Shown here in pieces: positions 11,084 through 61,466 of a stretch of 64,000 nt of DNA. Below the pieces are notes generated by a model. The model worked only from the letters and a program-made list of their open reading frames with translations, did no database searches and was not told the origin of the DNA. Position numbers and translations under genes: made by a program. Position 1 is the stretch's first letter. Every line of letters starts with the position of its first letter. The stretch covers positions 12,526 to 76,525 of the forward strand of contig JBMNRW010000001.1 of assembly GCA_050944875.1 (NCBI GenBank), read 5' to 3'. Source of the stretch: Patescibacteria group bacterium. GTDB lineage: Bacteria; Patescibacteriota; UBA1384; JACPKC01.

Positions 11084-12397
11084 TCAGTCAACTACTCTGC
11101 CTGTGGTTGTTGGATGTGTATTGGTCTCGGTCACTCGGAAGATGAGTGCGCCGACGAAGAGGATTGTCCCCGTGACAATGAACGCGGTGCGGAGGTCGTA
11201 GTCGCCAACCGTCGCGAGGAGTGGACGCATGACCGCCGCATAGACGCTCACGAAGAGTGCGATGATCGAGAGCGTCGTTGCGCGGTTTTCGCTCGGGATG
11301 TGCCGGTTCATGTAGTCGGCGAAGACGGGATCCCGCCGGTTACCGGCGGCATCGTTCAGAATGAAGACGAGAATCGCGAGTCCTGGCGTAGCGGTGAACG
11401 CCAAGCCGATCCATGCCAGCGCCGGGAGCATGGTCACGACGAGCGTCGTTCTCATGACACCGAACCGCTGGTCGAGTTTATGGGCGACGAGCTTTGCCGC
11501 CAGCGCTGCCAGTGTTGCGACCGCGACGGCAGTACCGAGCCAGCTCGACGGGGTATTGAGCGACTGGAAGTACGGTGGCGCGAGGCGGTACAGGAGAACG
11601 GAGAACGGCATGGTGAACGCGGAGAGAAGGACAAGGCGGCGGAGCGCACCGTTGTTCCGGAGGAGACGGAAGCCTTCAGTGAAGTTCCGCACAGCCCGTT
11701 CGAGTCCAGGGAGCTGTCGTCTCGAGATGCGCTGCGGTGATTCCTTGACCGTCGAGAGGATGACGAGGGCGATGACTTGTGCACCAGCGGTGAGGAGGAA
11801 GAGTTGGTAGTACTCGTCAAGGCTCTGATTGCTCGCGAGTATGCCAGCGACGAGGCTTGCGATCGCGGTGCCGACGAGCGGCCACGCGCCGTACATACCC
11901 ATAATCCGCTGCATGTCACCCGTGCGCCCAGCCTACTTGAGGTCGTCGTAGATGAGCGCCTGGTCGGAGCCGGAGCTGAAGGCGAGGCCAAGTCCAATGA
12001 GGGCGTGGGCGACAGCGAACTCAATAAAGCTCGAGCCGAGGAGCCATGGGATCCAGCTGAGAAGAATCACGACATTGCCAAGAATGAGGCTCGTTTTCCG
12101 GCCGAGGATGTCGCCGATGATCCCGGTCGGGACTTCGAAGATGATCGCGCTCACCAGGAGGATGGATTCGAGCCAGAGAACGTCGGCGAGCGAGAAGCCG
12201 AGCGCCTGGAAGAAGAGCGGCTGGATCGCGATGCCGAAGTACAGGAACATGAACAACCGCGAGAGCGTCAGTCTGCGGATTGCCGAAGTCACTACTTCCC
12301 TCCTCTGCGTAGGTCCAGTATGGCCGATATCAGCCGAACGCGGAATTGCGCCTACCGCTGTGCGCGGAGGTACTCGCGCCAGTTGTCTTTGAGCCAA
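11084..12397 (-). pseudogene. MFS transporter interrupted by a single in-frame TAG codon.
   Basis: Two ORFs lie in the same frame (11933-12397 N-terminal half and 11084-11914 C-terminal half), separated by an amber codon at 11933-11935. Both halves are hydrophobic multi-TM segments typical of an MFS transporter. Confidence 0.6.
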
Positions 12398-13329: not shown

Positions 13330-14514
13330 TCATGTTCTTGGATCGATGTAATAGGTTGTCTTGTGCCATTCTTCAGGTAGGTAGCCGAGCGCGTCCTTGT
13401 TCCCTTTCCCGTAGCCGAACTCTTTCATGAGTTTCGTCGGGGCATTGCGAAGGTGGAGCGGGATCTCGGGCACGGTCTTCGCCTGGATATCGTGGATCGC
13501 CGTATCGATGCCGTCGATGACCGCACGGCTCTTCCGGGCGGTCGCGAGGTAGGTGGCGCACTGCGCGAGCATGAGGCGAGCTTCCGGGTAGCCGGTCATG
13601 TGGACGGCCTGCATCGTCGCGGTCGCGAGGACGAGCGCGGTCGGCTGGGCGTTGCCGACGTCCTCGGCAGCGAAGATGACCATCCGCCGCGCGATGAAGA
13701 GCGGGTCCTCCCCTGCCTCGACCATGCGTGCTAGGTAGTGGAGCGTGGCGTTCGCGTCCGAGCCGCGCATGCTCTTAATAAACGCGGAGATCGTGTCGTA
13801 GTGCCCTTCGCCACCCTGGTCGTACCGCAGGGTTTTCCGCTGCACCGCCTGTTCCATCGTGCGCAGGTCGATTGTAGTTGCGAGCGTCAAGGCGACTTCG
13901 AGCGTGCCGAGGAGCGTGCGGGCGTCGCCGTCCGCTGAGGCGATGAGGTACTCGGCCGCCTCCTTCTTGAGCTTGTGTTCGGGGTAGAGCTTGAGCGCGC
14001 GGCGGACGAGCTCGTGGAGTGCTTTATGTCCCAGGGGTTCAAGCTTCATGACGCGCATCCGTGAGAGGAGCGGCGCGTTTACTTTGAAGCTCGGGTTTTC
14101 CGTCGTCGCACCGACGAGCGTCACGACGCCGCTCTCGACTGCGTGGAGCAGTGCGTCCTGCTGGGCGCTGTTGAACCGGTGGATCTCGTCGATGAAGAGG
14201 ACGGGCGTCGGTTCGTTCAAGCGGCGCATGCCGGCGGCGCGCTCAAGGATGGCGCGGACGTCCTTCACAGTGCCGTCGATAGCGGAGAGCTGCTCGAACG
14301 GCCGTTTGAGCTCGCTAGCGAGGATTCGCGCGAGCGTCGTCTTCCCGGTGCCGGGTGGTCCCCAGAAGAGGATGCTCGGGAGCTGTCCGGCCTTAAGAAG
14401 TCGTGTCAGCGCCTGGTCTCTGCCGATTAGGTGTTCCTGGCCGACAACGGCCTTCAGTGTCGCCGGCCGCATGCGCTCGGCGAGGGGCTTGTGTTCGGTG
14501 TTTGTTCGCTCCAT
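13330..14514 (-). CDS. rarA: Replication-associated recombination protein A (AAA+ ATPase).
   Basis: Walker A GPPGTGKTT, Walker B LFIDEIHRFN and a MgsA C-terminal domain. A TATAGT element about 8 nt upstream of the ATG suggests a leaderless transcript. Confidence 0.9.
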   Translation of the reverse strand: MERTNTEHKPLAERMRPATLKAVVGQEHLIGRDQALTRLLKAGQLPSILFWGPPGTGKTTLARILASELKRPFEQLSAIDGTVKDVRAILERAAGMRRLNEPTPVLFIDEIHRFNSAQQDALLHAVESGVVTLVGATTENPSFKVNAPLLSRMRVMKLEPLGHKALHELVRRALKLYPEHKLKKEAAEYLIASADGDARTLLGTLEVALTLATTIDLRTMEQAVQRKTLRYDQGGEGHYDTISAFIKSMRGSDANATLHYLARMVEAGEDPLFIARRMVIFAAEDVGNAQPTALVLATATMQAVHMTGYPEARLMLAQCATYLATARKSRAVIDGIDTAIHDIQAKTVPEIPLHLRNAPTKLMKEFGYGKGNKDALGYLPEEWHKTTYYIDPRT

Positions 14515-20507: not shown

Positions 20508-21119
20508 CTAGTTGGCGAATGAGAGCTGGCGGATTACGCCGAGTACCTTGCCCTGGATGCTCGCCTTGTCGGTGTAGATCGGTCGGTACTTCGGGTTGGC
20601 CGGCTGGAGCCGGATCCTCCCCTTCTCCTTGTAGAAGCGCTTGAGCGTCACGTTCTCCTCCTCGAGGAGCGCGACGACGATGTCGCCGTTCTTCGGTCGG
20701 TCCGTGCGCTGGATGACGACGTAGTCGCCGTCGAGAATGCCGTCGTCCACCATGGAGTCCCCGCTCACCTTGAGGGCGAAGACGTCGCGACCCATCATGG
20801 ACCGTGGTATATCGATTGTCTCACTTGTTCGGATGGCGGCAATGGGCGACCCAGCGGCAATCGCGCCCATGAGCGGGATCTCGTACGCGCGCTCGTCCCA
20901 GGTGGGGGTGAGCTGCAGGGAGCGGGCTTCGAGCGGATCTTTCTCGAGGTGGCCTTTCTCCTGCAGGGCGCCGATGTGCTCGGCAACAGTCGCGACAGAT
21001 TTGAGCCCGAAGTGCTCGGCGATTTCCCGGTAGCTCGGCGCGTACCCGTGGTCCTCGATGTAGCCGCGGATGTAATCGAGAATGTTCTTCTGTTTTGGGG
21101 TGAGACTCGCTGTGCCCAT
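20508..21119 (-). CDS. lexA: LexA repressor.
   Basis: N-terminal winged HTH and S24 peptidase motifs VSGDSMVDDGILDGDYVVI and GKVLGVIR, including the Ser/Lys dyad. Confidence 0.95.
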   Translation of the reverse strand: MGTASLTPKQKNILDYIRGYIEDHGYAPSYREIAEHFGLKSVATVAEHIGALQEKGHLEKDPLEARSLQLTPTWDERAYEIPLMGAIAAGSPIAAIRTSETIDIPRSMMGRDVFALKVSGDSMVDDGILDGDYVVIQRTDRPKNGDIVVALLEEENVTLKRFYKEKGRIRLQPANPKYRPIYTDKASIQGKVLGVIRQLSFAN

Positions 21120-21128
21120 AGCACCTCC

Positions 21129-21160
21129 TTCGTCAGTCTAATCCGAACAAAGACCGTACA
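21129..21160. promoter_or_regulatory. Conserved operator-like motif A upstream of lexA (candidate SOS box).
   Basis: ccgaacaaagaccgtacacaatgtggataacg matches motif B at 22812-22843 at 26 of 32 positions. It contains the inverted repeat ACACA-a-TGTGG, a GAAC-N7-GTAC direct repeat and a DnaA-box-like TGTGGATAA. Confidence 0.55.
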
Positions 21161-21210
21161 CAATGTGGATAACGATTTTTGCTGTCAAGCGCGGGGGGTT
21201 GTGGATTGTT

Positions 21211-22521
21211 TCACGTCATCGGGAATGGAGCGGGGTTCGGCGGCTCGGGGCTGAATCGACGCTGTCGGCCGTCCGGGACGACGTGGTGGCGGATCGCCCG
21301 GGTGAGGCCGCTCGTCACCGCCCGGCTACCAAAGCGTTCCCGGATGCGGTCGACCGCTCGGGTAAGGAGCGTTGACCGCTCCGGACCGAAGAGCGACTGC
21401 GGCGTGCTCGTTCGGGGCGTGAGCTCGCTGACCGTGAGCGCCGGCATCCGGACTCGTGTCTCAGTCGTGAGCGCATCGAGGTCGTCGAGGACGGCGTCTC
21501 GGACGAGCTGCATCGCCGCAGTGAAGACGTCCTGGTCCGACTCAAGTCGACGGGTTGTCCGTTGGCTCGCCTGCCAGCTCGGTGCCCCGGTCCGGCGGAA
21601 GTAGAGTGTGAGGCGCTGGGCGACGAACCCGCGTCGCCGCATGCGGCTCGCGACCCGTTCGGCGAGCCATATGAGCGTCGGCTCGAGTGCGCGGACCGGG
21701 GTGTCAGCCGGAAGCGTGTACTGGTGGCCGATCGACCGCTCAGCACGGGCTGCCCAGTGCGGGACGACCGGGCTCGGATCAACCCCCTGTCCGACGAGCC
21801 AGAGCTCCCGCTCGTACGGGAAGACCAAGGTGCGGAGCTCATCGAGCGTGCACTCGGCAAGATCCTGGAGCGTGTGGACGCCGCCGCCGCGGAGCCGTCG
21901 GCCGAGCCGCGGCCCGATGCCAGCGAGCTCTTCGATATCGGTTGCGGCGTAGTGGGCGCCACGGGTGCGGGCACGAACGCCGAGCGTCTCGAACGCCTGG
22001 ACGAGTTCGTGCTCGTGGTCGTCGAGGAGCGCGACAACGCCGTCCGGCTTCATGGACTCGCTCGCGAGCTTTGCGAGACGCTTGTTATGTGCGATGCCTA
22101 CCGAGGCGGTGAGAACAGGGCCGAGCGCGTGGCGGAGCCGGGCCTTGAGCGTCCGGACGAGCGAGGTGATGTCGGCGGGCGTGAGCCGGCGGTCGAGCTC
22201 GACGAACGCTTCGTCGATCGAGAAGATCTCGACGTACGGCGAGAGCGTGTCGAGGAGGCCGAAGAGCCGTTCGCTGTACGCGCGGTACTTCGGGTAGTCG
22301 GGTTCGACGATCTGGAGTTCGGGACAGCGCTGAACTGCTTCGCTCGCGCTCATGCCGGTTTTGACGCCTCGTGCCTTCGTCTCGCGCGACGCTGCCGCGA
22401 TGACCGATCGGGTGCCCGGTTTGCCCCCGACGCCGACTGCTCGGCCGCGGAGTAGCGGATTGCACTGCTGCTCGACAGAGGCGAAGTAGCTATTCATGTC
22501 GACGTGGAGGACCCAGCGCAT
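21211..22521 (-). CDS. dinB: Y-family DNA polymerase (DinB/Pol IV-like).
   Basis: HVDMNSYFASVE and SIDEAF catalytic motifs, with a little-finger domain. Confidence 0.85.
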   Translation of the reverse strand: MRWVLHVDMNSYFASVEQQCNPLLRGRAVGVGGKPGTRSVIAAASRETKARGVKTGMSASEAVQRCPELQIVEPDYPKYRAYSERLFGLLDTLSPYVEIFSIDEAFVELDRRLTPADITSLVRTLKARLRHALGPVLTASVGIAHNKRLAKLASESMKPDGVVALLDDHEHELVQAFETLGVRARTRGAHYAATDIEELAGIGPRLGRRLRGGGVHTLQDLAECTLDELRTLVFPYERELWLVGQGVDPSPVVPHWAARAERSIGHQYTLPADTPVRALEPTLIWLAERVASRMRRRGFVAQRLTLYFRRTGAPSWQASQRTTRRLESDQDVFTAAMQLVRDAVLDDLDALTTETRVRMPALTVSELTPRTSTPQSLFGPERSTLLTRAVDRIRERFGSRAVTSGLTRAIRHHVVPDGRQRRFSPEPPNPAPFPMT

Positions 22522-22523
22522 AT

Positions 22524-22781
22524 CTACCGCCTCGCGCCCGTTGGCGCGTCGATCGCCGTGAGGTTTGCCTCAAGCGTTTCGCCGTTCCACTCAAGAATGT
22601 AGACGTTTCTTGCGGCGCTCACCGACCATTGGTAGATCGTGGCCTGCCCCTCGCGGACGCGGTGGTAGCCGTGGATCGCGTCGATTTTGTACGTGCGGCC
22701 GGCGTACCGAAAGAGGTGCGGCCGGGCGTGGCCGTCCTGGAAGATCGTGACGATGTCGATCGGCGTGCGGAGCATTTCCAT
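22524..22781 (-). CDS. Small protein co-transcribed with the Y-family polymerase.
   Basis: An aaaggaggtggg RBS precedes MEMLRTPIDIVTIFQDGHARPHLFRYAG.... Its stop overlaps the dinB start (ATGA coupling). It may be a YolD/UmuD-like accessory factor. Confidence 0.55.
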   Translation of the reverse strand: MEMLRTPIDIVTIFQDGHARPHLFRYAGRTYKIDAIHGYHRVREGQATIYQWSVSAARNVYILEWNGETLEANLTAIDAPTGARR

Positions 22782-22811: not shown

Positions 22812-22843
22812 TACCAAACAAAGACCGAACACACTGTGGATAG
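22812..22843. promoter_or_regulatory. Conserved operator-like motif B between the divergent dinB operon and the 22859-26622 operon.
   Basis: ccaaacaaagaccgaacacactgtggatagtg is the second copy of the lexA-upstream motif. It lies about 30 nt upstream of the small-protein start and about 15-40 nt upstream of the plus-strand operon. Confidence 0.55.
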
Positions 22844-22858
22844 TGCATCGGCTGAGAA

Positions 22859-23239
22859 GTGTGTTCTAAGGCGATCTTCGAAATCATGGGCGCCTATCCG
22901 GCGCTCGGTTTCGAGCAGCTCCATCGCTTTCTCTGTGAAGTGGCGAACGACGATATTGACGAGCTTCTCGCGTTCTTCGCCCACGACGAGGTCAATGAGT
23001 GGTACTACCGTGCCATTCCGGACAAGCGCCAGCGGTTCGTGGAGGCGATGGGTCACACTATCCGCCTCGCCTATCATGGCAACCTCGCCCTGGCGAACCG
23101 GGATCTCGAGGACGACATCGCTCAGTGGAATGAGCGGACGGGGTTGGTGCCGCGTCCGCAGCGCACGCGCCTCATGCACGAGGCTGCGCTCATGCGGCGT
23201 GAGGCCAACCGCGGGTACTACCGAGGGAGGTGGGAGTAA
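22859..23239 (+). CDS. Hypothetical protein, first gene of the candidate SOS-controlled operon.
   Basis: 126-aa ORF directly downstream of motif B, with no recognisable domain. Confidence 0.5.
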   Translation: MCSKAIFEIMGAYPALGFEQLHRFLCEVANDDIDELLAFFAHDEVNEWYYRAIPDKRQRFVEAMGHTIRLAYHGNLALANRDLEDDIAQWNERTGLVPRPQRTRLMHEAALMRREANRGYYRGRWE

Positions 23240-24678
23240 TGTCCGGCATTGACTTCGATAAGCTCTTGCCGCCACCCTGGAAGGAGAACCCGCTCGCGGT
23301 CTTCGGGTTTACGCCCGAGACCGTCCGGTCTGTCCAGGATCGGCCACAGGTGCTGGCGCAGATGGCGCGCATTACGAAGCGCGCCCTCATGCTGGCGCAC
23401 CACGCCGACCACACGGGTTCGAAAGGGAAGGCACAGGCGCTTAACGACGCCCAGACCTACCTCGAGGATCCGTACTGGCAGCGGACGATCGTCAAGGAGT
23501 TCCTTCAGCATGAAGGTAGTGCGAACTACCGGACGCGCAAGCGACTGAAGGAGCTCGAGGAGACGATTGCCGTCCTCGCCCAGGAGCTCGACGAGCTCCA
23601 GACGGGTGGACACGGTTCGCCAATACTTCAGCAGGCGCCCAACGGAAAGGTTGTCAGTGGCGCGTCGCACCCGCTTTGGGTTGCGAGCGCACTACACCTC
23701 AACGGGAAAGCGCCCGACTACGTCCAGGATCATGCGCTTCTCCCCCATGTCCTGCCGGCGCTCGTCGTCGTGAAGGAGGTGGGGAAATCGGGAGCCATGC
23801 ACCTCTACTTCATCGAGGAAGAGTTCGGCTCTGTCATTAAGGTGGCAGACTGTTCTCACTCCTCGACTACCTCCCCGACGCAGCTCCTGACGGACTTCGT
23901 GGCGAAAGAACTCAAGGCGTTGGCGCCGAAGCCCGAGCAGATCGAGCGCTACCTCACGATGTTGAGGACTGGCATCCGGGAGCTTGGGCGTTGGAAAGAG
24001 TATCTGGATCAGGGAGAGTTCTTTCGGCTCCAGCAGCTCCGCCGACGCGTCTGGTGGCCGCAGCTCGATGAGCTGGCGTTTGCGGAGCTCATGTATGCAC
24101 CATGCAGGGAAGCTCGTCCTGAAGACGTGCGGGCCTACGGCGAGCTCGAGGCGCAGAAGCTCTTGTCGAAGAAGCTCGACCTTATTCCCGGCCGTACCAT
24201 TGGTCCGAAGACCAAGGAGCACATGGAGACGCAGGTGTTGCCTGCGCTCATTCAGTCGTTCCTCAATCGGATCGAAGAGGCGGGTCGGGGTGGTGGCGGA
24301 CAGAGATTTCTGTTCGGCACCACTGAGCGTCGAAGGCTTACGCTCAAGCGGCTTCGGGCGCGACTCAAGCCGGTTCGCACCGGCGATATGATTGCCCTAG
24401 GCTCTCTGCCACTTGCCGACTACCAGTCGGTGAAGAAGTGGAGTGCGTACAAGGGCAGTGGTATCGCCGTCGATACGGTGAGTGCGGCGTTTCCGACGCT
24501 TCGGCCAACACTGACTACCGACCACGTCCTCGTTCAGCACAGCTGGGCGATGACGTTCGGGAGAGTGCCAGGTGCTTCGCCGTACGTGAAGCTTGCGCCG
24601 CTTGGACAGATCCAGGCGGTGCAGCGTATCGACGACGAGCTCCTGACAAGTCTCGAAGTCAGACTCTACCCGGCGTGA
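23239..24678 (+). CDS. Hypothetical protein (479 aa) with a weak J-domain-like N-terminus.
   Basis: A gggaggtggg RBS precedes an ATG that overlaps the upstream stop. The N-terminus LAVFGFTPETVRSVQDRPQVLAQMARITKRALMLAHHADHTG...YLEDP loosely resembles a J domain, with HPD replaced by HAD. The rest includes coiled-coil stretches. Confidence 0.55.
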   Translation: MSGIDFDKLLPPPWKENPLAVFGFTPETVRSVQDRPQVLAQMARITKRALMLAHHADHTGSKGKAQALNDAQTYLEDPYWQRTIVKEFLQHEGSANYRTRKRLKELEETIAVLAQELDELQTGGHGSPILQQAPNGKVVSGASHPLWVASALHLNGKAPDYVQDHALLPHVLPALVVVKEVGKSGAMHLYFIEEEFGSVIKVADCSHSSTTSPTQLLTDFVAKELKALAPKPEQIERYLTMLRTGIRELGRWKEYLDQGEFFRLQQLRRRVWWPQLDELAFAELMYAPCREARPEDVRAYGELEAQKLLSKKLDLIPGRTIGPKTKEHMETQVLPALIQSFLNRIEEAGRGGGGQRFLFGTTERRRLTLKRLRARLKPVRTGDMIALGSLPLADYQSVKKWSAYKGSGIAVDTVSAAFPTLRPTLTTDHVLVQHSWAMTFGRVPGASPYVKLAPLGQIQAVQRIDDELLTSLEVRLYPA

Positions 24679-24756
24679 GTCGGTTGGGCTTCGGCCCGCC
24701 GGCTCGCGCCGGTTCGCATAGATTGACTACTGAAAAACAAAGGAGGGCCTTGCGCT

Positions 24757-24921
24757 ATGGCGAAGGCAATGAAGTGGAGGAGTGACCACTCCTACCCCGA
24801 TGACTGTCATGACCTCGTGGTCGTGCTGTCGGGGGTTGAGCAGGTCACCGGCGTCTACCCTGGTAAGATCGATCCCCGGGCGCCGCGCTCGTCGCGGCCC
24901 TGGGTGCGGCTGCGACTTTGA
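24757..24921 (+). CDS. Candidate 54-aa small protein.
   Basis: An aaggaggg RBS lies 9 nt upstream of the ATG. The product MAKAMKWRSDHSYPDDCHDLVVVLSGVEQVTGVYPGKIDPRAPRSSRPWVRLRL is below the ORF-track cut-off. Confidence 0.3.
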   Translation: MAKAMKWRSDHSYPDDCHDLVVVLSGVEQVTGVYPGKIDPRAPRSSRPWVRLRL

Positions 24922-24990
24922 GAGAAGAACCTCGTCGTCCGCAGCTGTTTTTCCGGTGCTGTTTCAACCTTCAACGTCTATGTCGAGGAT

Positions 24991-26622
24991 TTGAACCTCG
25001 GCTACGCGGACGTCCACGCTACGCTCATCCGTTTCTGCTTGCAGGAGCGGGTTGACTATCGATTTACCGATAGCGGAGACGACGAGGAAGACGTTGCGGC
25101 TGTGGAGCGGGCGCAGCAGGGCTTCGATAAGCTCGTGGAGACCTTCGGGGCTCTGCGTGCGAAGATCGACGTGCTCTGCGTGCAGTTCCCCTTCCTTGCG
25201 CCGATCCTCACTCCGTTCGCGCTTCTGCTGGCCGGTCTGTCTGGCCGTCAGGGCGTGGACGCTGAGGTCCAGCTGGATGAGATCGCCGAACGCATGAAGG
25301 AACTCCACTTGGAGTTCGAGAAGGTGCAGGCCGCGGTTCCGCAGCAGGACTTCGAGGAGCTCGTGAAGCTTTCGAAGGAGCAGCACGCCCAGTACGAGAA
25401 GGAGCTCGGTGAAATCCGTACGCTTCTCTCTGTAGCTCAGTCCAAGGCGGAGCGTCTGCAGGCGGTTGAGCGCGAGCTCGCGTCCTTGCAGCGGGAAGTC
25501 AAGGCACTGCGCACTGCTAAGGCGGAGCTCCTCGAACAGAAGCATGAGCTCGAGCGTCAGAAGGCCGAGCTTGAGCCGAAGGCACGGATGCTCCCGGTCG
25601 TCGAGAGTAAGGTCAAGGAATTGACCGAGGCGATCGAGGAGTATATGGGCGAGGAGCAGGAGGACGTGACGGTCCGGAAGCTCCAGCTATTTGAGCAGGG
25701 CCTCGGTCGGTACCAGCGGAGCTACGAGGACGGGCAGAAGAAGCTCGTCCCGCAGCTTCAGCTGCTGACGACTGGCCTGAACAGCTGCCAGGAAGCGTTC
25801 GATCGATTCGAGCGTGGATTGGCCGATTACACCCGGCAGCATCGTGAGCTCCTTTCGGAGATTCGGTCGCTGTCCGAGCAGGCGCTCGAGTGTCCTGAAG
25901 CTGAAGAGTCCCTGAAGGCTGCGTTCCAGCGCCTCAATGGACTCAAGAAGCCCGACGGATCGCTCGAGGATCTGCGTACGAAGCTCGGGCAGCAGCGCCT
26001 TGCGCAGCAGCGGTGCGAGCGCGATTTGCTTGAGTGTGGTCAGGCGCTTCAGTTTATCGGCAAGCAGCGTGAGTTGCTTGAGTCGGTGAACCGCTTCCTG
26101 ACTGCGCTGCCTGAGCGCTTCGACGATTGGTGGGTGTCGCAGTGTTCTAGTATGCGGGCAGCTACCACACTGGTGCCTGAGGCTGAAGCGCCTGCGGAAT
26201 CCGGCGGAGTTCCCCGTCAGCAGTGGTCGACGAAGCTCCTGGAGATGTCGGTTGGTGTACCGCTCGGCGTCCTCTTCGCTCGTGATCGCTTCGACCTGAA
26301 GATGATCCGAGATAAGGAGTCTCGAGAGGCCCACCTTCGGCTCGTGAACCAGGGCGTTGACGTCCGCTGGCTCCTCCGCTGCTTCTTGCCTGGCGAGGTG
26401 GTGACGGCAGAAGTGATCGGCAACCGCATTGCCACGGAGCTACAGGTGCATCCGGGACGGAAGGCGCCTTACCTCAAGGTAGCGCACGGTCTGTTCCCTG
26501 GCCTCATCGAGTGCAAACTGCGTGGCCAGGGCGGAGTGCTCTCGGATGAGTGCGCCGGGCCGATCGCCCGCTTGATCGAACACCGGGTTGGCCAGATGAA
26601 GAACTGGCTCAACCGGGACTAA
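24991..26622 (+). CDS. Large coiled-coil hypothetical protein (about 540 aa).
   Basis: Extended heptad-rich central region (ELGEIRTLLSVAQSKAERLQAVERELASLQREVKALRTAKAELLEQKHELERQKAELE). The annotated start is a TTG, so the true start is uncertain. Confidence 0.55.
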   Translation: MNLGYADVHATLIRFCLQERVDYRFTDSGDDEEDVAAVERAQQGFDKLVETFGALRAKIDVLCVQFPFLAPILTPFALLLAGLSGRQGVDAEVQLDEIAERMKELHLEFEKVQAAVPQQDFEELVKLSKEQHAQYEKELGEIRTLLSVAQSKAERLQAVERELASLQREVKALRTAKAELLEQKHELERQKAELEPKARMLPVVESKVKELTEAIEEYMGEEQEDVTVRKLQLFEQGLGRYQRSYEDGQKKLVPQLQLLTTGLNSCQEAFDRFERGLADYTRQHRELLSEIRSLSEQALECPEAEESLKAAFQRLNGLKKPDGSLEDLRTKLGQQRLAQQRCERDLLECGQALQFIGKQRELLESVNRFLTALPERFDDWWVSQCSSMRAATTLVPEAEAPAESGGVPRQQWSTKLLEMSVGVPLGVLFARDRFDLKMIRDKESREAHLRLVNQGVDVRWLLRCFLPGEVVTAEVIGNRIATELQVHPGRKAPYLKVAHGLFPGLIECKLRGQGGVLSDECAGPIARLIEHRVGQMKNWLNRD

Positions 26623-26674: not shown

Positions 26675-26729
26675 AAAAGACCGGTTCTAACACCCTGCTT
26701 CCAGCAGGGCTAGTTGGGCCGGTCTTTTT
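26675..26729. terminator. Bidirectional intrinsic terminator.
   Basis: aaaagaccgg...ccctgct-tcc-agcaggg...ccggtcttttt forms nested stems with T-runs on both strands, between convergent genes. Confidence 0.6.
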
Positions 26730-44064: not shown

Positions 44065-44266
44065 AGTGATGCCAAGGGCTCAACTATACGGTGTAGCCTT
44101 GTGACCCGCAATGCGTCTGCCGCTGCGAGGGGTCAGCTCCGTCCACTGTGGATAACTCGGTTGACATGCCTTCTTACCGTTGCCAGCATCGAAGTAACTA
44201 CAAATCGTGTGGGCCGAAACAACTCACACGGACGAACGTAGAAGCACTAGTTTTGAGGAGGTCCCC

Positions 44267-45202
44267 ATGCGGGCAGCCTATATTGGAAGACTCACAGGCA
44301 GCGGTACTGTCCGTCGGGTCGCTGCTCTTGCGCTGGTAAGTGCACTAGCAGTAGCGCCGTACATGGCTTCAGCCGCGACGGACGCGGAGTTTACGAATCA
44401 CCTGACCGGCGCTGATTCGGTAAACGGCAACACGCTTGAAGGTACGACGACGTTCAACTTCACCGTGACGAACGTTGGTACGGTGACGAATGACTTCGAT
44501 CTCGACCTCAACACGGGCGGGAATACGATTAGCGGTAATACGACCGTCGGGGATGTCTTGACCGGTGACATCGACGCCGAGCTCGAAGTTGAGAATGTGG
44601 TGAATACCGCGCCGGTCGTGGTGCCAATGGGGATGGGCGGTGGCGACGTTACGGTTCGGAGCGAGAACCACCTGACCGGTGCTGGTTCGACGAACACGAA
44701 CACCACAACGACTTCGTCGACTGCAAACATGACGACGACGAATGTCGGAACGGTGACAAACGCGATGACGCTGGCGCTGAATACCGGTAATAACACGATT
44801 GAGAACAATACGACGGTCGGCGACATCTCGACCGGCGACATCCGGGTCCGCGGGCGCGTTGAGAACCGCGTCAACGCCGAGCCGGAAGCAAACGGCCAAG
44901 GTGGCGGTACGATTCCGCCGACGGTGATCCCGCAGCCGACGTACACGAACACCCCGCCAGCGGTCGTCGCCAATCTTCCGGCAGCCACAGTATCCGGGGG
45001 TGGGACGATCGCAAAGGTTGCGCAGACGGTGACGACGCCCAAAAACGAGTTCTTCCCTGCCGGCACAGCGCTCAATGCCGCTGAGATTCTTTCCCTCCTG
45101 GCACTCGCCTTCCTCGCGGTCTACGGGTTCGATCTGATCCAGTACGCCTACCGCCGGCGCGCGCTCGTCGCGCACCAGGTCGGTGCCCTGCGCTTCCTCT
45201 AA
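44267..45202 (+). CDS. Secreted tandem-repeat protein RP1 (two repeat units of about 90 aa) with a C-terminal hydrophobic segment and RRR tail.
   Basis: gaggagg RBS and a signal peptide. The repeat is N-HLTGA[DG]S-N-N...VTN...LNTG-NTI-NTTVGD[VI]-TGDI. The C-terminus FPAGTALNAAEILSLLALAFLAVYGF...RRR has sorting-signal architecture. Confidence 0.7.
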   Translation: MRAAYIGRLTGSGTVRRVAALALVSALAVAPYMASAATDAEFTNHLTGADSVNGNTLEGTTTFNFTVTNVGTVTNDFDLDLNTGGNTISGNTTVGDVLTGDIDAELEVENVVNTAPVVVPMGMGGGDVTVRSENHLTGAGSTNTNTTTTSSTANMTTTNVGTVTNAMTLALNTGNNTIENNTTVGDISTGDIRVRGRVENRVNAEPEANGQGGGTIPPTVIPQPTYTNTPPAVVANLPAATVSGGGTIAKVAQTVTTPKNEFFPAGTALNAAEILSLLALAFLAVYGFDLIQYAYRRRALVAHQVGALRFL

Positions 45203-45310
45203 CACATTGCGGTCGATACCTGCACGGCAGCGCGTGGCTGGTGCATGGTACGAATTAACTCCACGCGCAGAAGTACAAGTTAGTTTCTCTCAGAGGAAAA
45301 GGAGTTTTCC

Positions 45311-46183
45311 ATGAAACTCGACCTCATTACTGCCCGCAACCGGATGCGTGTCGTTGCAGCGGTCGCGGCACTCGCCCTCCTTGGCGGCGCTGGCTCGGCC
45401 TGGGCTGATGTCAACGTCGACGGTTTGAACGAGCGCACGGGCGCTGACTCGGATAACTTTAACACCTACACTGTTGATGACCTTGTTGATGCAGATATCA
45501 TCAACTCGTCATCGGCACTCAACGACGTCCTCCTGAATGTTGACTCGGGTAACAATGATGTTCTCGAGAACACGACGGTCGGTGATGTTGAAGGTGGAGA
45601 TGTAAACGTCGGGGGTTCGTTCTACACCGAACTCAATGCCGGCATGGTTGAGCTCGATGGTATGGCGATGGGCGATGTTGATGCGAGCTTTGAGAACAAC
45701 ACAACTGGCGCCAACTCCGTGAACCGCAACACGCTCGATGTTGAGCGTGATACGCTCGTCACGGTGACGAATGCTGGTTCAGCATCGAACCTCTACGATC
45801 TCACTGTCGATACCGGTGACAACGACACCAACCGCAACACGACGGTCGGTGACGTGTCGACGGGCGATGTCGATATGAACATTGAAGCCGAGACCATGAT
45901 CAATGAAGGTGCTTCCTCAATTGATCTTGGTGATCTTGGTGCGAGCAGCAGTGTTGACGCGAGCTTTGAGAACGCCATCACTGGTGCTGATTCGGACAAC
46001 CGCAACACGGTGATTGTCGATGACGTGAAGGATATTGACGTCACGAACAGTGCGACTGTCACGAATGATCTCGATCTCATTGTCGATACCGGTGACAACG
46101 ACACCAACCGCAACACGACGGTCGGTGACGTGTCGACGGGCGACGTCTCGATCGACTTCAGCTTCACGAACATCCTTAACTAA
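45311..46183 (+). CDS. Secreted tandem-repeat protein RP2 (three repeat units, no C-terminal anchor).
   Basis: aaaggag RBS and a signal peptide. It has three units ending NTTVGDVSTGDV. It also contains a near-exact 62-nt intragenic DNA direct repeat (45806-45867 and 46082-46143). Confidence 0.7.
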   Translation: MKLDLITARNRMRVVAAVAALALLGGAGSAWADVNVDGLNERTGADSDNFNTYTVDDLVDADIINSSSALNDVLLNVDSGNNDVLENTTVGDVEGGDVNVGGSFYTELNAGMVELDGMAMGDVDASFENNTTGANSVNRNTLDVERDTLVTVTNAGSASNLYDLTVDTGDNDTNRNTTVGDVSTGDVDMNIEAETMINEGASSIDLGDLGASSSVDASFENAITGADSDNRNTVIVDDVKDIDVTNSATVTNDLDLIVDTGDNDTNRNTTVGDVSTGDVSIDFSFTNILN

Positions 46184-46199
46184 GGATTTCGTACCTGAC

Positions 46200-46228
46200 G
46201 CGGATTGCAGGACAACCTGCAATCCCGC
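46200..46228 (+). other. Stable hairpin between RP2 and RP3 (possible attenuator or RNA-processing site).
   Basis: gcggattgcagg-acaa-cctgcaatcccgc is a 12-bp stem with no U-tract, and it is immediately followed by the RP3 RBS. Confidence 0.4.
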
Positions 46229-46255
46229 CAGAGACGAAGCAACGAAGGGAGTTCA

Positions 46256-48232
46256 ATGACAGACCAGTACGCACGTTCGCTCCGTCGCACTACGGCACGC
46301 GTCCTCTTTGTGCCGTTTTTCGTGTGGAGCCTGTTCGCGCCGCTCATTACCGTAGCGGCAGAGGGAGAAGTACCTCAAACCGGACCGACCGTCGAGACCG
46401 GGCCGACGCAGCCAACGGGCACCACTGTTGAAACGGGGCCGACGCAGCCAACTGGGCCAACGGGTCCGACTGGTACGTCAGTGGTTGAGCCGGAGCCATG
46501 TACTGACCCGTCATGCTTCTACGGCATGGGGCAGGGCGAGGGTCAGGGCGTTGACCAAGGTGTTGGCCAGGGCGTCCCAGCGGCCGCAGCCGCTACGCCA
46601 ACTGGGACCCTTGCAAACGACACGACCGGTGCTGGATCGACGAATACCAACAGCGCGACTGAGAACAACTCAACCGATATCACGAACCGCAATAACGCGA
46701 CGATTACGAACGACGTCGATATGAGTCTGAGTACCGGGAGCAATACGCTTAGCCAGAACAGCGAAGTCGGCAGCCTGACGACAGGCGACATCCGGGGCTC
46801 GCTCTCGATCGTGAACGCAGCGAACTCCCAGTTCGCACCGGGCAGTAGCGTCGGCCTTGGTACTGCAACCTCTGGTGCCGACGGCGTCCTCCTTATGGCA
46901 GATGGATCTCGGGCGTACCTGCCCTCAAATAGCCAGACCGGCGCCGACTCGACCAACACTAACGCGATTTCCGGCACGAACGCGGTAAGAATCGTCACAG
47001 AGAGCACCGCGCTCGTCGACAACGATATCGACATTGCGGCCTCAACGGGCGGGAACACTATTACGGAGAACACGCTCTTCGGCGATATCACGACCGGTTC
47101 GATCGACCTCGCCGTGAACCTCATCAATCTTCTAAACCTTTTAATGCCCGACACGCTCTTCATGGTCGACCTGTGGAACCTCTACGGAGACGTCCTGGGT
47201 GATATCTTCGCGCCGCTCACGAATAGTCAGACGGGCGCCGGCTCGACGAACACGAACGCGGTCAGTGGGGTGAACACGGCGGATGTGACGGTCACGAGCA
47301 TCGCGGACACGACGAACACGTTCAATATTACAACTGACACGGGCAGCAATGTCCTTGACCAGAACACGGCTGTCAGTGATGTATCGACGGGCGACGTCCG
47401 CATCGATGGCAGCGTCACGAACATCTCGAACGCTGCGACACCCACGTTCTACATCGTGAACGTGCTCGGCAAGTGGAATGGCGGCGCGCTCGCCTTATCG
47501 GCTGGCAGCTACATCATCAATGAGCTTGGCAACTGGCTGACCGGTGCCGACTCGACGAATACGAACACCGTCGACCAGACGAATACGCTCGATATGGACA
47601 TTACGAACACCGCGACCGTGAACAATGGGCTCAATATCTCGGCGAGCACGGGCGGTAATACGATTGCTCGGAACACGGCCGTGGGCAACGTGACCACTGG
47701 AGATATCAACATCATGGCGAACGTCGTGAACTTCCTGAACTCATTCGGTGGCGACCTGTCGAAGTTCTCCCTGGGTGTGATCAATATCTTCGGCGACTGG
47801 GGGAAGAAGCCGACGCCTGCACCGGTGGTACCGCAGGCCGTGGGCCTTGGCCAGGGCGGCGCGCCAGTCGGTGAAGAACAGGATGCGGAACCGATGCAGC
47901 TTGCGACTGTTACTACTGCAACGCAGGGTAAGGTAGCTGAGGTCGCGCCTCAGGCACCAGCTGTGAATCAGGTAGCTCCAGCCATGCAGTCGGTTGTCCG
48001 GCGTCCGGTCACGCAGCTGACGCAGGCTCCGGCACCGTCGGCTGCGACAAGCGCGGGTAGCTCGGTACTGGTCGCGGGAACGAGCTCAGTACCGACTGCA
48101 GCTGACCTCGGTCTCATCGACGGCGAACAGGAACGTGGTTCCTCGGTATCGTACCTCTGGATTGCACTCATCTCCCTCGGGGTGATCTGGGGGGTCTTAG
48201 AACTCGCAGCACTGCGTAAGCAGCGCGCCTAA
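46256..48232 (+). CDS. Secreted tandem-repeat protein RP3 (four repeat units, Gly/Gln-rich spacers, C-terminal TM plus basic tail).
   Basis: gaagggag RBS and a signal peptide. It has four units of ...TGA[DG]STNTN...TG-NT...GD[IV]-TGD[IV].... The C-terminus SVSYLWIALISLGVIWGVLELAALRKQRA is a TM segment plus a basic tail. Confidence 0.7.
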   Translation: MTDQYARSLRRTTARVLFVPFFVWSLFAPLITVAAEGEVPQTGPTVETGPTQPTGTTVETGPTQPTGPTGPTGTSVVEPEPCTDPSCFYGMGQGEGQGVDQGVGQGVPAAAAATPTGTLANDTTGAGSTNTNSATENNSTDITNRNNATITNDVDMSLSTGSNTLSQNSEVGSLTTGDIRGSLSIVNAANSQFAPGSSVGLGTATSGADGVLLMADGSRAYLPSNSQTGADSTNTNAISGTNAVRIVTESTALVDNDIDIAASTGGNTITENTLFGDITTGSIDLAVNLINLLNLLMPDTLFMVDLWNLYGDVLGDIFAPLTNSQTGAGSTNTNAVSGVNTADVTVTSIADTTNTFNITTDTGSNVLDQNTAVSDVSTGDVRIDGSVTNISNAATPTFYIVNVLGKWNGGALALSAGSYIINELGNWLTGADSTNTNTVDQTNTLDMDITNTATVNNGLNISASTGGNTIARNTAVGNVTTGDINIMANVVNFLNSFGGDLSKFSLGVINIFGDWGKKPTPAPVVPQAVGLGQGGAPVGEEQDAEPMQLATVTTATQGKVAEVAPQAPAVNQVAPAMQSVVRRPVTQLTQAPAPSAATSAGSSVLVAGTSSVPTAADLGLIDGEQERGSSVSYLWIALISLGVIWGVLELAALRKQRA

Positions 48233-51602: not shown

Positions 51603-54789
<3,187 letters not shown>

Positions 54790-60260: not shown

Positions 60261-61466
60261 ATGAGCGCAATTCGAGCAGTCCGGGCGCGGACAATACTCG
60301 ACTCACGTGCCGGCTACACGCTCGAGGTTGATGTTCTCCTCGATGACGGGACGCTTGGGCGCGCAGCAGTGCCATCGGGCGCGAGCGCCGGCAGTCACGA
60401 GGCGGTGAAGCTCAGTGACACTACGCGGTCGGTGGCGAACGTGAAGACGGTCGGCGCGTTGCTCGTGGGCCATGACCCGGCGCAACAAGAAGCGATTGAC
60501 CGCATTCTCTTGGACGCGGACGGGACGGCGAACAAAGGTGAGCTCGGGGCGAACGTCTTACTCGCGCTGTCGCTCGCGAGCTGTGACGCTGCTGCACAGT
60601 CAGCAAAGACGCCGCTCTACGCCCATATCCACGCGCTGTCGGGTGGTACGGTAGCGCCGGCGCTGCCGACCCCCATGTTCAACGTGATTAACGGCGGGAA
60701 TCACGCGGATAATGCACTCGAGTTCCAGGAGTTCATGATCGTGCCGGCCCGTGATGAGCGGCCGTTCCACGAGAAGATGCGGCTTGGCGTCGCGCTCTTC
60801 CAGGAGCTTCGCCGCGTCCTTCAGGCTATGGGCCACTCGACCGCGGTCGGCGACGAAGGCGGGTTCGCGCCGCGCCTCAACTCGAACGAGGAAGCGATCG
60901 AGCTCCTTGTCCGCTCGTTCGAGGAGTCCCGGTTCCGGGCCAATGATGACGTGACAATCGCGTTGGACGTCGCAGCGAGCGCCATCCCCGACCTCGCACC
61001 GGTCATTTACCCGCACGACGTCTACTCGTACTACGCCAAGCTCGTCGACACCTACCCCATCTCGCTCATCGAGGATCCGCTCACCGAGGACGACTGGCAG
61101 GGTTGGACAAAGCTCACCGCCGCGCTTGGTTCACGTATCTCGATCGTCGGCGACGACCTCTTCACGACGAACCCAGCGCGCATCAAGCAAGGTATCGAAG
61201 TGAAGGCGGCGAACGGCCTGGTCGTGAAGCCGGACCAGATCGGGACGCTCACGGAGACACTGCAGGCGGTGCGACTCGCGCGGCAGGCAGGGATGTCCAT
61301 TGTGATCTCGCACCGGTCCGGTGAGACGGAATCGACGCTTATTGCCGACCTGGCTGTCGGTATTGGCGCCGAGTACATCAAGGCCGGCGCGCCTGCCCGC
61401 GGCGAGCGTGTCGCGAAGTACAACCAGCTGCTGCGCATCGAAGAGCTCATGCGCGAACAAGCCTGA
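60261..61466 (+). CDS. eno: Enolase, divergent second copy (401 aa).
   Basis: [63 protein letters not shown] and AKYNQLLRIEE. The catalytic set is conserved but the surface loops are shortened. Confidence 0.8.
   Translation: MSAIRAVRARTILDSRAGYTLEVDVLLDDGTLGRAAVPSGASAGSHEAVKLSDTTRSVANVKTVGALLVGHDPAQQEAIDRILLDADGTANKGELGANVLLALSLASCDAAAQSAKTPLYAHIHALSGGTVAPALPTPMFNVINGGNHADNALEFQEFMIVPARDERPFHEKMRLGVALFQELRRVLQAMGHSTAVGDEGGFAPRLNSNEEAIELLVRSFEESRFRANDDVTIALDVAASAIPDLAPVIYPHDVYSYYAKLVDTYPISLIEDPLTEDDWQGWTKLTAALGSRISIVGDDLFTTNPARIKQGIEVKAANGLVVKPDQIGTLTETLQAVRLARQAGMSIVISHRSGETESTLIADLAVGIGAEYIKAGAPARGERVAKYNQLLRIEELMREQA

Follow-up and report, generated by a model that had tools for sequence, protein, structure and literature searches.

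A J-domain protein in a conserved three-gene frame next to the lexA and dinB genes of a Patescibacteria contig

The genes considered here lie on the plus strand at positions 22859–26622 of a 64,000-nucleotide (nt) stretch of the Patescibacteria contig JBMNRW010000001.1, a stretch that is called the window throughout and that has a GC content of 62%. An earlier note on this DNA had described a putative SOS-controlled operon of three uncharacterized proteins; what is new in the present analysis is that one of them is a J-domain protein and that it belongs to a conserved frame of three genes not described before, which is not a demonstrated damage-response system. The three co-directional open reading frames (ORFs) that had been listed are all present, at 22859–23239 (126 amino acids (aa); gene 1 or orf126), 23239–24678 (479 aa; gene 2 or orf479) and 24991–26622 (543 aa; the annotated part of gene 3). 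Gene order was taken from gene calls on the Logan contig L002, an independent assembly that is identical to the window over 17.7 kb, and there the module reads as plus-strand ORFs of 126, 479, 54 and 543 aa. On its 5′ side the minus strand carries CHAP, LytR_C, a 67-aa ORF, lexA, dinB and an 85-aa ORF (p85), and on its 3′ side, likewise on the minus strand, follow a spoU-like gene, hisS and relA/spoT. Because the HisRS of the window is at most 47% identical to that of any species representative, the best being from metagenome-assembled genomes (MAGs) of Saccharibacteria, Berkelbacteria and Parcubacteria, we place the DNA in a poorly sampled high-GC lineage of the Patescibacteria or Candidate Phyla Radiation (CPR).

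The GC content of the module ORFs by codon position (0.75–0.79 at third positions, GC3, and 0.37–0.49 at second positions, GC2) resembles that of the neighbouring genes, and antisense ORFs fare worse. Further evidence comes from L001, a 1951-nt contig of another sample whose J protein is 96% identical to the window copy. Substitutions between the two are concentrated at codon position 3, and the ratio of nonsynonymous to synonymous substitution rates (dN/dS, Nei-Gojobori) is 0.06 for orf126 and 0.13 for orf479, compared with 1.7 for an off-frame control, which show that both are genuine coding genes under strong purifying selection. The synonymous rate itself (dS) differs threefold between them, being 0.50 in orf126 and 0.16 in orf479. 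The two genes overlap translationally in the sequence TAATG, as had been read before, and the ATG of orf479 at 23239 is preceded by the ribosome-binding site (RBS) GGGAGGTGGGAG; a GTG start upstream of it would give a protein of 482 aa. By motif scan the Walker A motif is absent from all three proteins of the module, in agreement with the earlier statement that they have no recognizable catalytic motif.

Gene 2 carries an N-terminal J domain, at residues ~17–95 (nt 23287–23523), in which the canonical HPD triplet is replaced by HAD at residues 55–57. This had been noticed as a loose resemblance, and it is now supported by sequence profiles, by the predicted fold and by homologues that bear HPD. 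When 1.84 billion representative proteins were searched exhaustively with phmmer, only six family members were returned (P0001–P0006), P0001 being a near-identical copy of the window protein, and the N-termini of the family align without a gap from NPLAVFGF to H-P/A-D. Four of the six (P0002, P0004, P0005 and P0006) have HPD; HAD is found in P0001, P0003 and the window protein. One HPD-bearing member, P0004, matches the Pfam family PF00226 (DnaJ) at 6.6e-5 with 23.4 bits, the gathering score being 27.8, and orf479 of the window taken alone has no PF00226 match at E ≤1. When a profile of the seven-member family was compared with solved J domains, TIM14 (8.7e-6) and Sis1 (1.3e-5) were matched, and Jac1, DNAJA1 and DnaJ more weakly. 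In the AlphaFold2 (AF2) model of orf479, which has a mean predicted local distance difference test (pLDDT) score of 60 and about 80 in the J region, the hairpin of helix II, loop and helix III is present, with HAD located in the loop between helices 36–54 and 62–76, and TIM14 and TIM16 are among the best matches of the region in both sequence and fold. Taken as a whole, the model had no Foldseek match in the PDB at E ≤0.001.

After the J domain the protein continues with a short coiled coil (residues 95–122) and with central and C-terminal alpha/beta regions that are conserved in the family, including a C-terminal block around G388, and that resemble no known fold; outside the J domain neither a recognizable fold nor a family match was obtained for orf479. 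The family itself is extremely rare, with six representatives among 1.84 billion proteins, scattered over a few metagenomic lineages. Word-indexed homology searches with orf479 and with the family alignment found only near-identical copies, and peptide-pattern scans of genomes, metagenomes and viral contigs found no J-family relatives, the alignment being too divergent for search patterns to be derived from it. A degenerate pattern of 165 nt for the J domain, built by hand, recovered the known members and detected none in metagenome or viral contigs. No relatives were seen in phage, viral-contig or plasmid collections, and a tblastn search with orf479 was likewise empty for phages and plasmids.

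The HPD triplet is essential for stimulation of the Hsp70 ATPase, and J domains in which the motif is altered have been classified as type IV or pseudo-J-domain proteins (pseudo-JDPs; PMC13254874, PMC10410713). Since HAD replaces HPD, the window copy falls into this category, and its ability to stimulate the ATPase of DnaK is probably reduced or lost. Because most of its relatives keep HPD, the loss of J function is presumed rather than known.

The homologues show that the J gene does not stand alone. In five independent contigs it lies between two co-directional genes, often overlapping with them and otherwise closely spaced. The upstream gene encodes 207–303 aa, the downstream gene encodes 548–641 aa where it is complete, and neither has a Pfam match. 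Whether the genes are conserved as a unit was a question raised by the earlier note, and in the homologous loci the three are indeed kept together. The upstream genes of two of these loci, L046 and L047, are homologous to each other (5e-14). The downstream gene of L047 is a fragment whose product is a coiled coil like gene 3 of the window, so that a coiled-coil downstream protein is seen both in the window and in L047, the two copies with enough readable sequence. The HAD-bearing member P0003 has intact neighbours of 260 and 641 aa.

Gene 3 had been described as a protein of about 540 aa. The ORF of 543 aa is real, but it is only part of a frame of 621 codons that is cut by an in-frame TGA. 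The N-terminal fragment, orf54 (24757–24921, plus strand, 54 codons), begins behind a strong RBS, AAAGGAGGG, is called as a gene in both L001 and L002, and ends at the TGA at 24919–24921. The remainder (24922–26622, plus strand) continues in the same frame and is open for 566 codons, and the annotated orf543 starts within it at a TTG at 24991, which divides the gene into pieces of 54 aa and roughly 543–566 aa. The joined N-terminus aligns across the TGA with the downstream protein of L046 (z = 6.4, 0/500 shuffles), and beside the homologues the counterpart of gene 3 is one undivided gene, of 548 aa in one case and 641 aa in another. Recoding of UGA (genetic code 4 or 25) was considered and rejected because well-aligned genes end in TGA: rarA, dinB, hisS and eno2 all do so at normal lengths. 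As TGA is thus an ordinary stop in this genome, we regard gene 3 as interrupted or split and not as recoded. An assembly error at the TGA is unlikely; the independent Logan assembly is identical at this point, though it may derive from the same reads.

The remainder of gene 3 completes the N-terminal domain and continues with the only hydrophobic segment of the protein (residues 137–162 of the joined sequence), a coiled coil of ~300 aa and a C-terminal region of ~150 aa. That the third protein is rich in coiled coil, as had been proposed, agrees with its long helices and with its weak matches, all of which are of the coiled-coil type. These include the coiled-coil regions of SMC, Rad50 and JetC proteins (TIGR02168 at 1.4e-5, JetC at 5e-5). 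The NCBIfam matches cover the coiled coil alone, with 23 bits against a cut-off of 567, and the [AG]xxxxGK[ST] motif of an SMC/Rad50-type ATPase head was not found in gene 3. In PADLOC-DB 2.0, gene 3 matches the coiled coils of JetC, LmuB and PbeC alone, at E 5e-5 or worse, and genes 1 and 2, orf54 and p85 have no match there. The single-sequence AF2 model of gene 3 (pLDDT 49.5) was too poor for a fold search, the C-terminus gave nothing meaningful against the PDB, and a word-indexed search with the joined gene returned near-identical copies alone. In a Joint Genome Institute (JGI) source the 543-aa protein (24991–26622) is named ‘prefoldin subunit 5’, a spurious name driven by the coiled coil.

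Gene 1 (22859–23239, plus strand) encodes a helical protein of 126 aa from a GTG start, an ATG at 22886 being the alternative. It occupies the place of the 207–303-aa upstream genes of the homologous modules and is about half their length. Pairwise shuffling against these genes gave z ≤1.2, and a hidden Markov model (HMM) of the upstream genes missed orf126. Family-profile scans gave no match for orf126, and a PDB search gave nothing meaningful.

The proposal of SOS control rested on an operator-like motif in front of the module. The motif is real and present in two copies, but both are oriented and placed for minus-strand genes and not for the module. The 26-nt sequence AACAAAGACCGWACACAMTGTGGATA occurs exactly twice in the window, at 21146–21171 and 22817–22842, where none is expected by chance, one copy lying upstream of lexA and the other upstream of p85-dinB. 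The LexA-type operator and promoter motif of p85-dinB extends over 22812–22842 (minus strand), and its box, TTCGGTCTTTGTTTGGTA at 22812–22829, has one mismatch to the direct-repeat consensus TTCGGTNTTTGTTCGGTA; the second copy, upstream of lexA, extends over 21141–21171 (minus strand) with its box at 21141–21158. The SOS genes of this context are all on the minus strand: lexA (20508–21119), the dinB-type Y-family polymerase gene (21211–22521) and p85 (22524–22781), a small ORF translationally coupled to dinB. The linkage of lexA, p85 and dinB recurs in one locus from Saccharibacteria (L004) and one from Berkelbacteria (L018), and in both of them the direct repeat is found without mismatch upstream of lexA and of p85 (11462–11479 and 13197–13214 in L004; 16718–16735 and 19401–19418 in L018). 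In the lexA promoters of these two loci the box sits between TTGACA and TAATGT, the −35 and −10 elements, and in all six lexA and p85 instances from the three genomes it lies on the strand of the regulated gene. By this rule of strand and position the box is a genuine operator of the LexA type that goes with the minus-strand genes, and the copy beside the module is to be assigned first of all to the divergent p85-dinB operon.

The operator lies 17–47 nt upstream of the orf126 GTG and its box 29–47 nt upstream, in a divergent spacer of 77 nt. Because the box is at this distance within so short a spacer, steric co-repression of a plus-strand promoter is possible, and LexA bound at the box could occlude a promoter placed there; no recognizable sigma-70 promoter for the plus strand was found. 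The earlier note had suggested looking for linkage of the module to lexA and dinB in other genomes, and this expectation failed: the homologues adjoin EF-Tu, S10 and sigma-factor genes, thyA or unknown genes, or lie on short contigs, and neither lexA nor dinB is among the annotated neighbours in the readable flanks. Within 4 mismatches, no box was found near the homologous modules in L046–L049, in a small sample of five contexts, three of them with DNA. Conversely, p85-dinB of L018, and that of L004 over the covered flank, has no such divergent partner. As far as it is visible from these sequences, SOS regulation does not appear to be conserved as a property of the module family. The label of an SOS-controlled DNA-damage module was thus drawn from adjacency, the shared 77-nt spacer alone favouring co-regulation.

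J-domain proteins decide where Hsp70 acts, and it is from this side that we read the locus. We consider it rather probable, by analogy, that the locus is a dedicated module built around a class C J-domain protein, in which the J protein would target DnaK to its operon partners, most plausibly to the coiled-coil protein. Gene 2 would dock on DnaK (Hsp70) with its J domain and bind the operon partners with its conserved C-terminal part, and DnaK could thereby be directed to assemble, remodel or release the coiled-coil protein. In the HAD variant the J protein might act instead as a scaffold, a competitor or a recruiter. A number of points weigh against this reading. The window protein lacks a Pfam DnaJ match and even P0004 stays below the gathering score; the homology of gene 3 to the downstream gene of L047 is not significant, nor is that of orf126 to the upstream genes of the homologous modules; no dnaK gene lies within the 64-kb window; and the operator is only 17–47 nt from the orf126 start, which leaves LexA control possible. 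The interactions among the three proteins and with DnaK are steps that we infer. Finally, a copy that carries HAD, has its gene 3 interrupted and has only a short gene 1 could be one in decay.

The last point can be taken further, to a window copy that is the decaying remnant of an accessory module and persists by inertia. The in-frame TGA under the standard genetic code, HAD in place of HPD, the half-length orf126 and a module GC3 slightly below that of the flanking core genes would all fit such an origin. Yet the dN/dS values of 0.06 and 0.13, at dS of 0.16–0.5, point to continuing purifying selection on genes 1 and 2, and HAD also occurs in P0003 between intact neighbours, for which reasons the copy is not simply dead; the strong RBS of orf54 has been kept in a region nearly invariant between strains, and the frame downstream of the TGA is still open for its 566 codons. 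We therefore hold simple decay to be improbable. Somewhat more room, though still a minor share of our belief, is left to a LexA-repressed, damage-inducible operon in which one box serves both divergent promoters and the module contributes to damage tolerance together with DinB. The position of the box in front of orf126, its single mismatch to the Patescibacteria direct repeat and a spacer so short that both promoters must overlap speak for it, as does a 9-nt copy of the left edge of the box, AGTGTGTTC, inverted over the orf126 start. It has to contend with an asymmetric box that points to the minus-strand gene in 6/6 instances, with the missing plus-strand sigma-70 promoter, with homologous modules that have neither lexA/dinB neighbours nor, where DNA is readable, a box, and with p85-dinB operons in L018 (and on the covered flank of L004) that have no divergent partner; moreover, a DNA-repair domain was found in none of the three proteins.

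Rare, patchy families in variable contexts are also what anti-phage defence or mobile-element cargo might look like, with the J protein sensing or exploiting the chaperone state and the coiled-coil protein serving as an effector or SMC-like sensor, and gene 3 does match the coiled-coil regions of JetC, LmuB and PbeC weakly. These PADLOC matches are confined to coiled-coil stretches and genes 1 and 2 have none, a Walker A or nuclease motif was not found, the phage, viral-contig and plasmid collections hold no relatives, the flanks lack an integrase or tRNA gene, and the GC content of the module is that of the host, all of which make a defence or cargo role very improbable in our estimation. The dedicated J-domain module and LexA control could also be combined, in a hitherto unrecognized chaperone-targeting machine of Patescibacteria-like bacteria, consisting of J-protein, adaptor and membrane-associated coiled-coil scaffold, that would in this lineage be wired to the minimal SOS regulon through the shared p85-dinB operator, and we give this combination a small chance only. 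If it were true, DNA damage would induce a DnaK-recruiting structural system, or a DnaK-sequestering one in the HAD variant, and division arrest or envelope remodelling would be one possible purpose.

The reading as a dedicated J-domain module has a precedent in the AtcJ-AtcA-AtcB-AtcC operon of Shewanella oneidensis, which combines the gene of a J-domain protein with those of its partners (PMC6715715). In both cases the J-domain protein is co-encoded with proteins of no known fold, and its non-J part is thought to tether DnaK to them. The likeness is one of organization: unlike AtcJ, the window protein is 479 aa long and conserved over large central and C-terminal parts, it carries HAD, and its partner is a coiled-coil protein of ~600 aa. 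With Pam16, the partner of Pam18/TIM14, and with DNAJB13 it shares a recognizable J fold in which HPD is altered (PMC13254874), but here only the central proline is replaced and the basic residues of helix II (KRAL..) are kept. A further precedent in organization is TopJ (NF037946 / TIGR03835), a J-domain protein for the assembly of the terminal organelle in Mycoplasma. Its J domain, too, is joined to a long body that is not canonical, and it works on a cytoskeletal structure rich in coiled coils; P0004 matches these models at E 0.002–0.009 in the J domain alone, far below the cut-offs, and the architectures are unrelated. Gene 3 has long coiled-coil stretches of the antiparallel type as in SMC, Rad50 and MukB, but it lacks their Walker A/B heads and hinge and scores hundreds of bits below the cut-offs. 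A Patescibacteria SOS regulon was reportedly described by Sanchez-Osuna, Barbe and Erill in 2017 (Environ Microbiol 19:3465; cited in PMC8565304). The window resembles that regulon in that a conserved LexA box precedes both lexA and the gene of a dinB-type polymerase, the direct repeat being found in three lineages, and departs from it in the J module, which has no box in any other genome examined and for which adjacency in the window is the sole link.

To our knowledge, little work has been done on bacterial J-proteins of class C that have dedicated partners in their operon, and hardly any on those of the CPR. The J family described here is very small, public resources annotate no domain in it, and the main gain is one of annotation, namely the J domain, the interruption of gene 3 and the assignment of the operator to p85-dinB. 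With natural HPD and HAD variants in one and the same three-gene frame, it offers a test bed for asking whether a change in HPD leaves a J domain dead, gives it a regulatory part or makes it active in another way. Should LexA truly co-control the module, a chaperone-linked function would join the very small SOS regulon of the Patescibacteria.

Several RNA and DNA elements accompany the genes. Over the stop codon of gene 2 lies a GC-rich hairpin (24670–24712, plus strand), missed by the earlier note, which folds strongly and has no clear U-tract; it could be an intercistronic stabilizer or an attenuator. The region 24679–24909, which includes the hairpin and orf54, differs from L001 at 2 of 231 nt, compared with ~5.5% elsewhere, and this conservation, with the contrast in dS between genes 1 and 2, suggests mosaic recombination or an extra constraint such as RNA structure. 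Behind the module the bidirectional terminator that had been proposed is well supported: the intrinsic terminator at 26675–26728, bidirectional by its structure and common to the convergent spoU-like gene, folds at −33.6 kcal/mol (z = −5.6) into a hairpin with an A-run on one side and a U-run on the other. At the other end an inverted repeat, GAACACACT / AGTGTGTTC (22827–22866), has arms of 9 nt that are 22 nt apart, the right arm overlapping the GTG start of orf126.

The small ORF p85 is kept upstream of dinB and behind a LexA box in L018 (19429–19677) and L004 (13336–13545). It shares 33% identity with its counterparts in Berkelbacteria and Saccharibacteria MAGs (E 2e-9 and 1e-7) and has no Pfam, NCBIfam or PDB match. 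Possibly it assists the Y-family polymerase as an accessory factor specific to Patescibacteria, analogous to UmuD or YolD. The −10 elements of L004 and L018 lie only ~7–8 nt from the ATG, a spacing in the sequence that suggests leaderless lexA and p85 mRNAs in these two loci. A weaker box-like site, TTCGGTGTTTGTTCGCTC (14494–14511, plus strand, 2 mismatches), covers the first codons of a rarA/mgsA-like AAA gene (13330–14514, minus strand) and lies ~225 nt upstream of a gene for an SLT transglycosylase. This may be a chance match or a third SOS site.

Elsewhere in the window, three consecutive genes at 44207–48232 (plus strand) encode predicted secreted or anchored proteins of 331, 290 and 675 aa, with repeats of the type TGADSxNxNT...TGxNTxxxNTxVGDxxTGD, in a stretch of lower GC (0.57–0.59); they have no Pfam match, and when checked as a possible part of the J module they proved to be unrelated. 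Among 25 window genes whose stop codons were checked, TAG is used 10 times, TAA 9 times and TGA 6 times, and TGA is thus under-used for a genome this GC-rich (62%). Two enolase paralogues (53497–54789 and 60261–61466, plus strand) share one glycolytic neighbourhood with pgi and iPGM.

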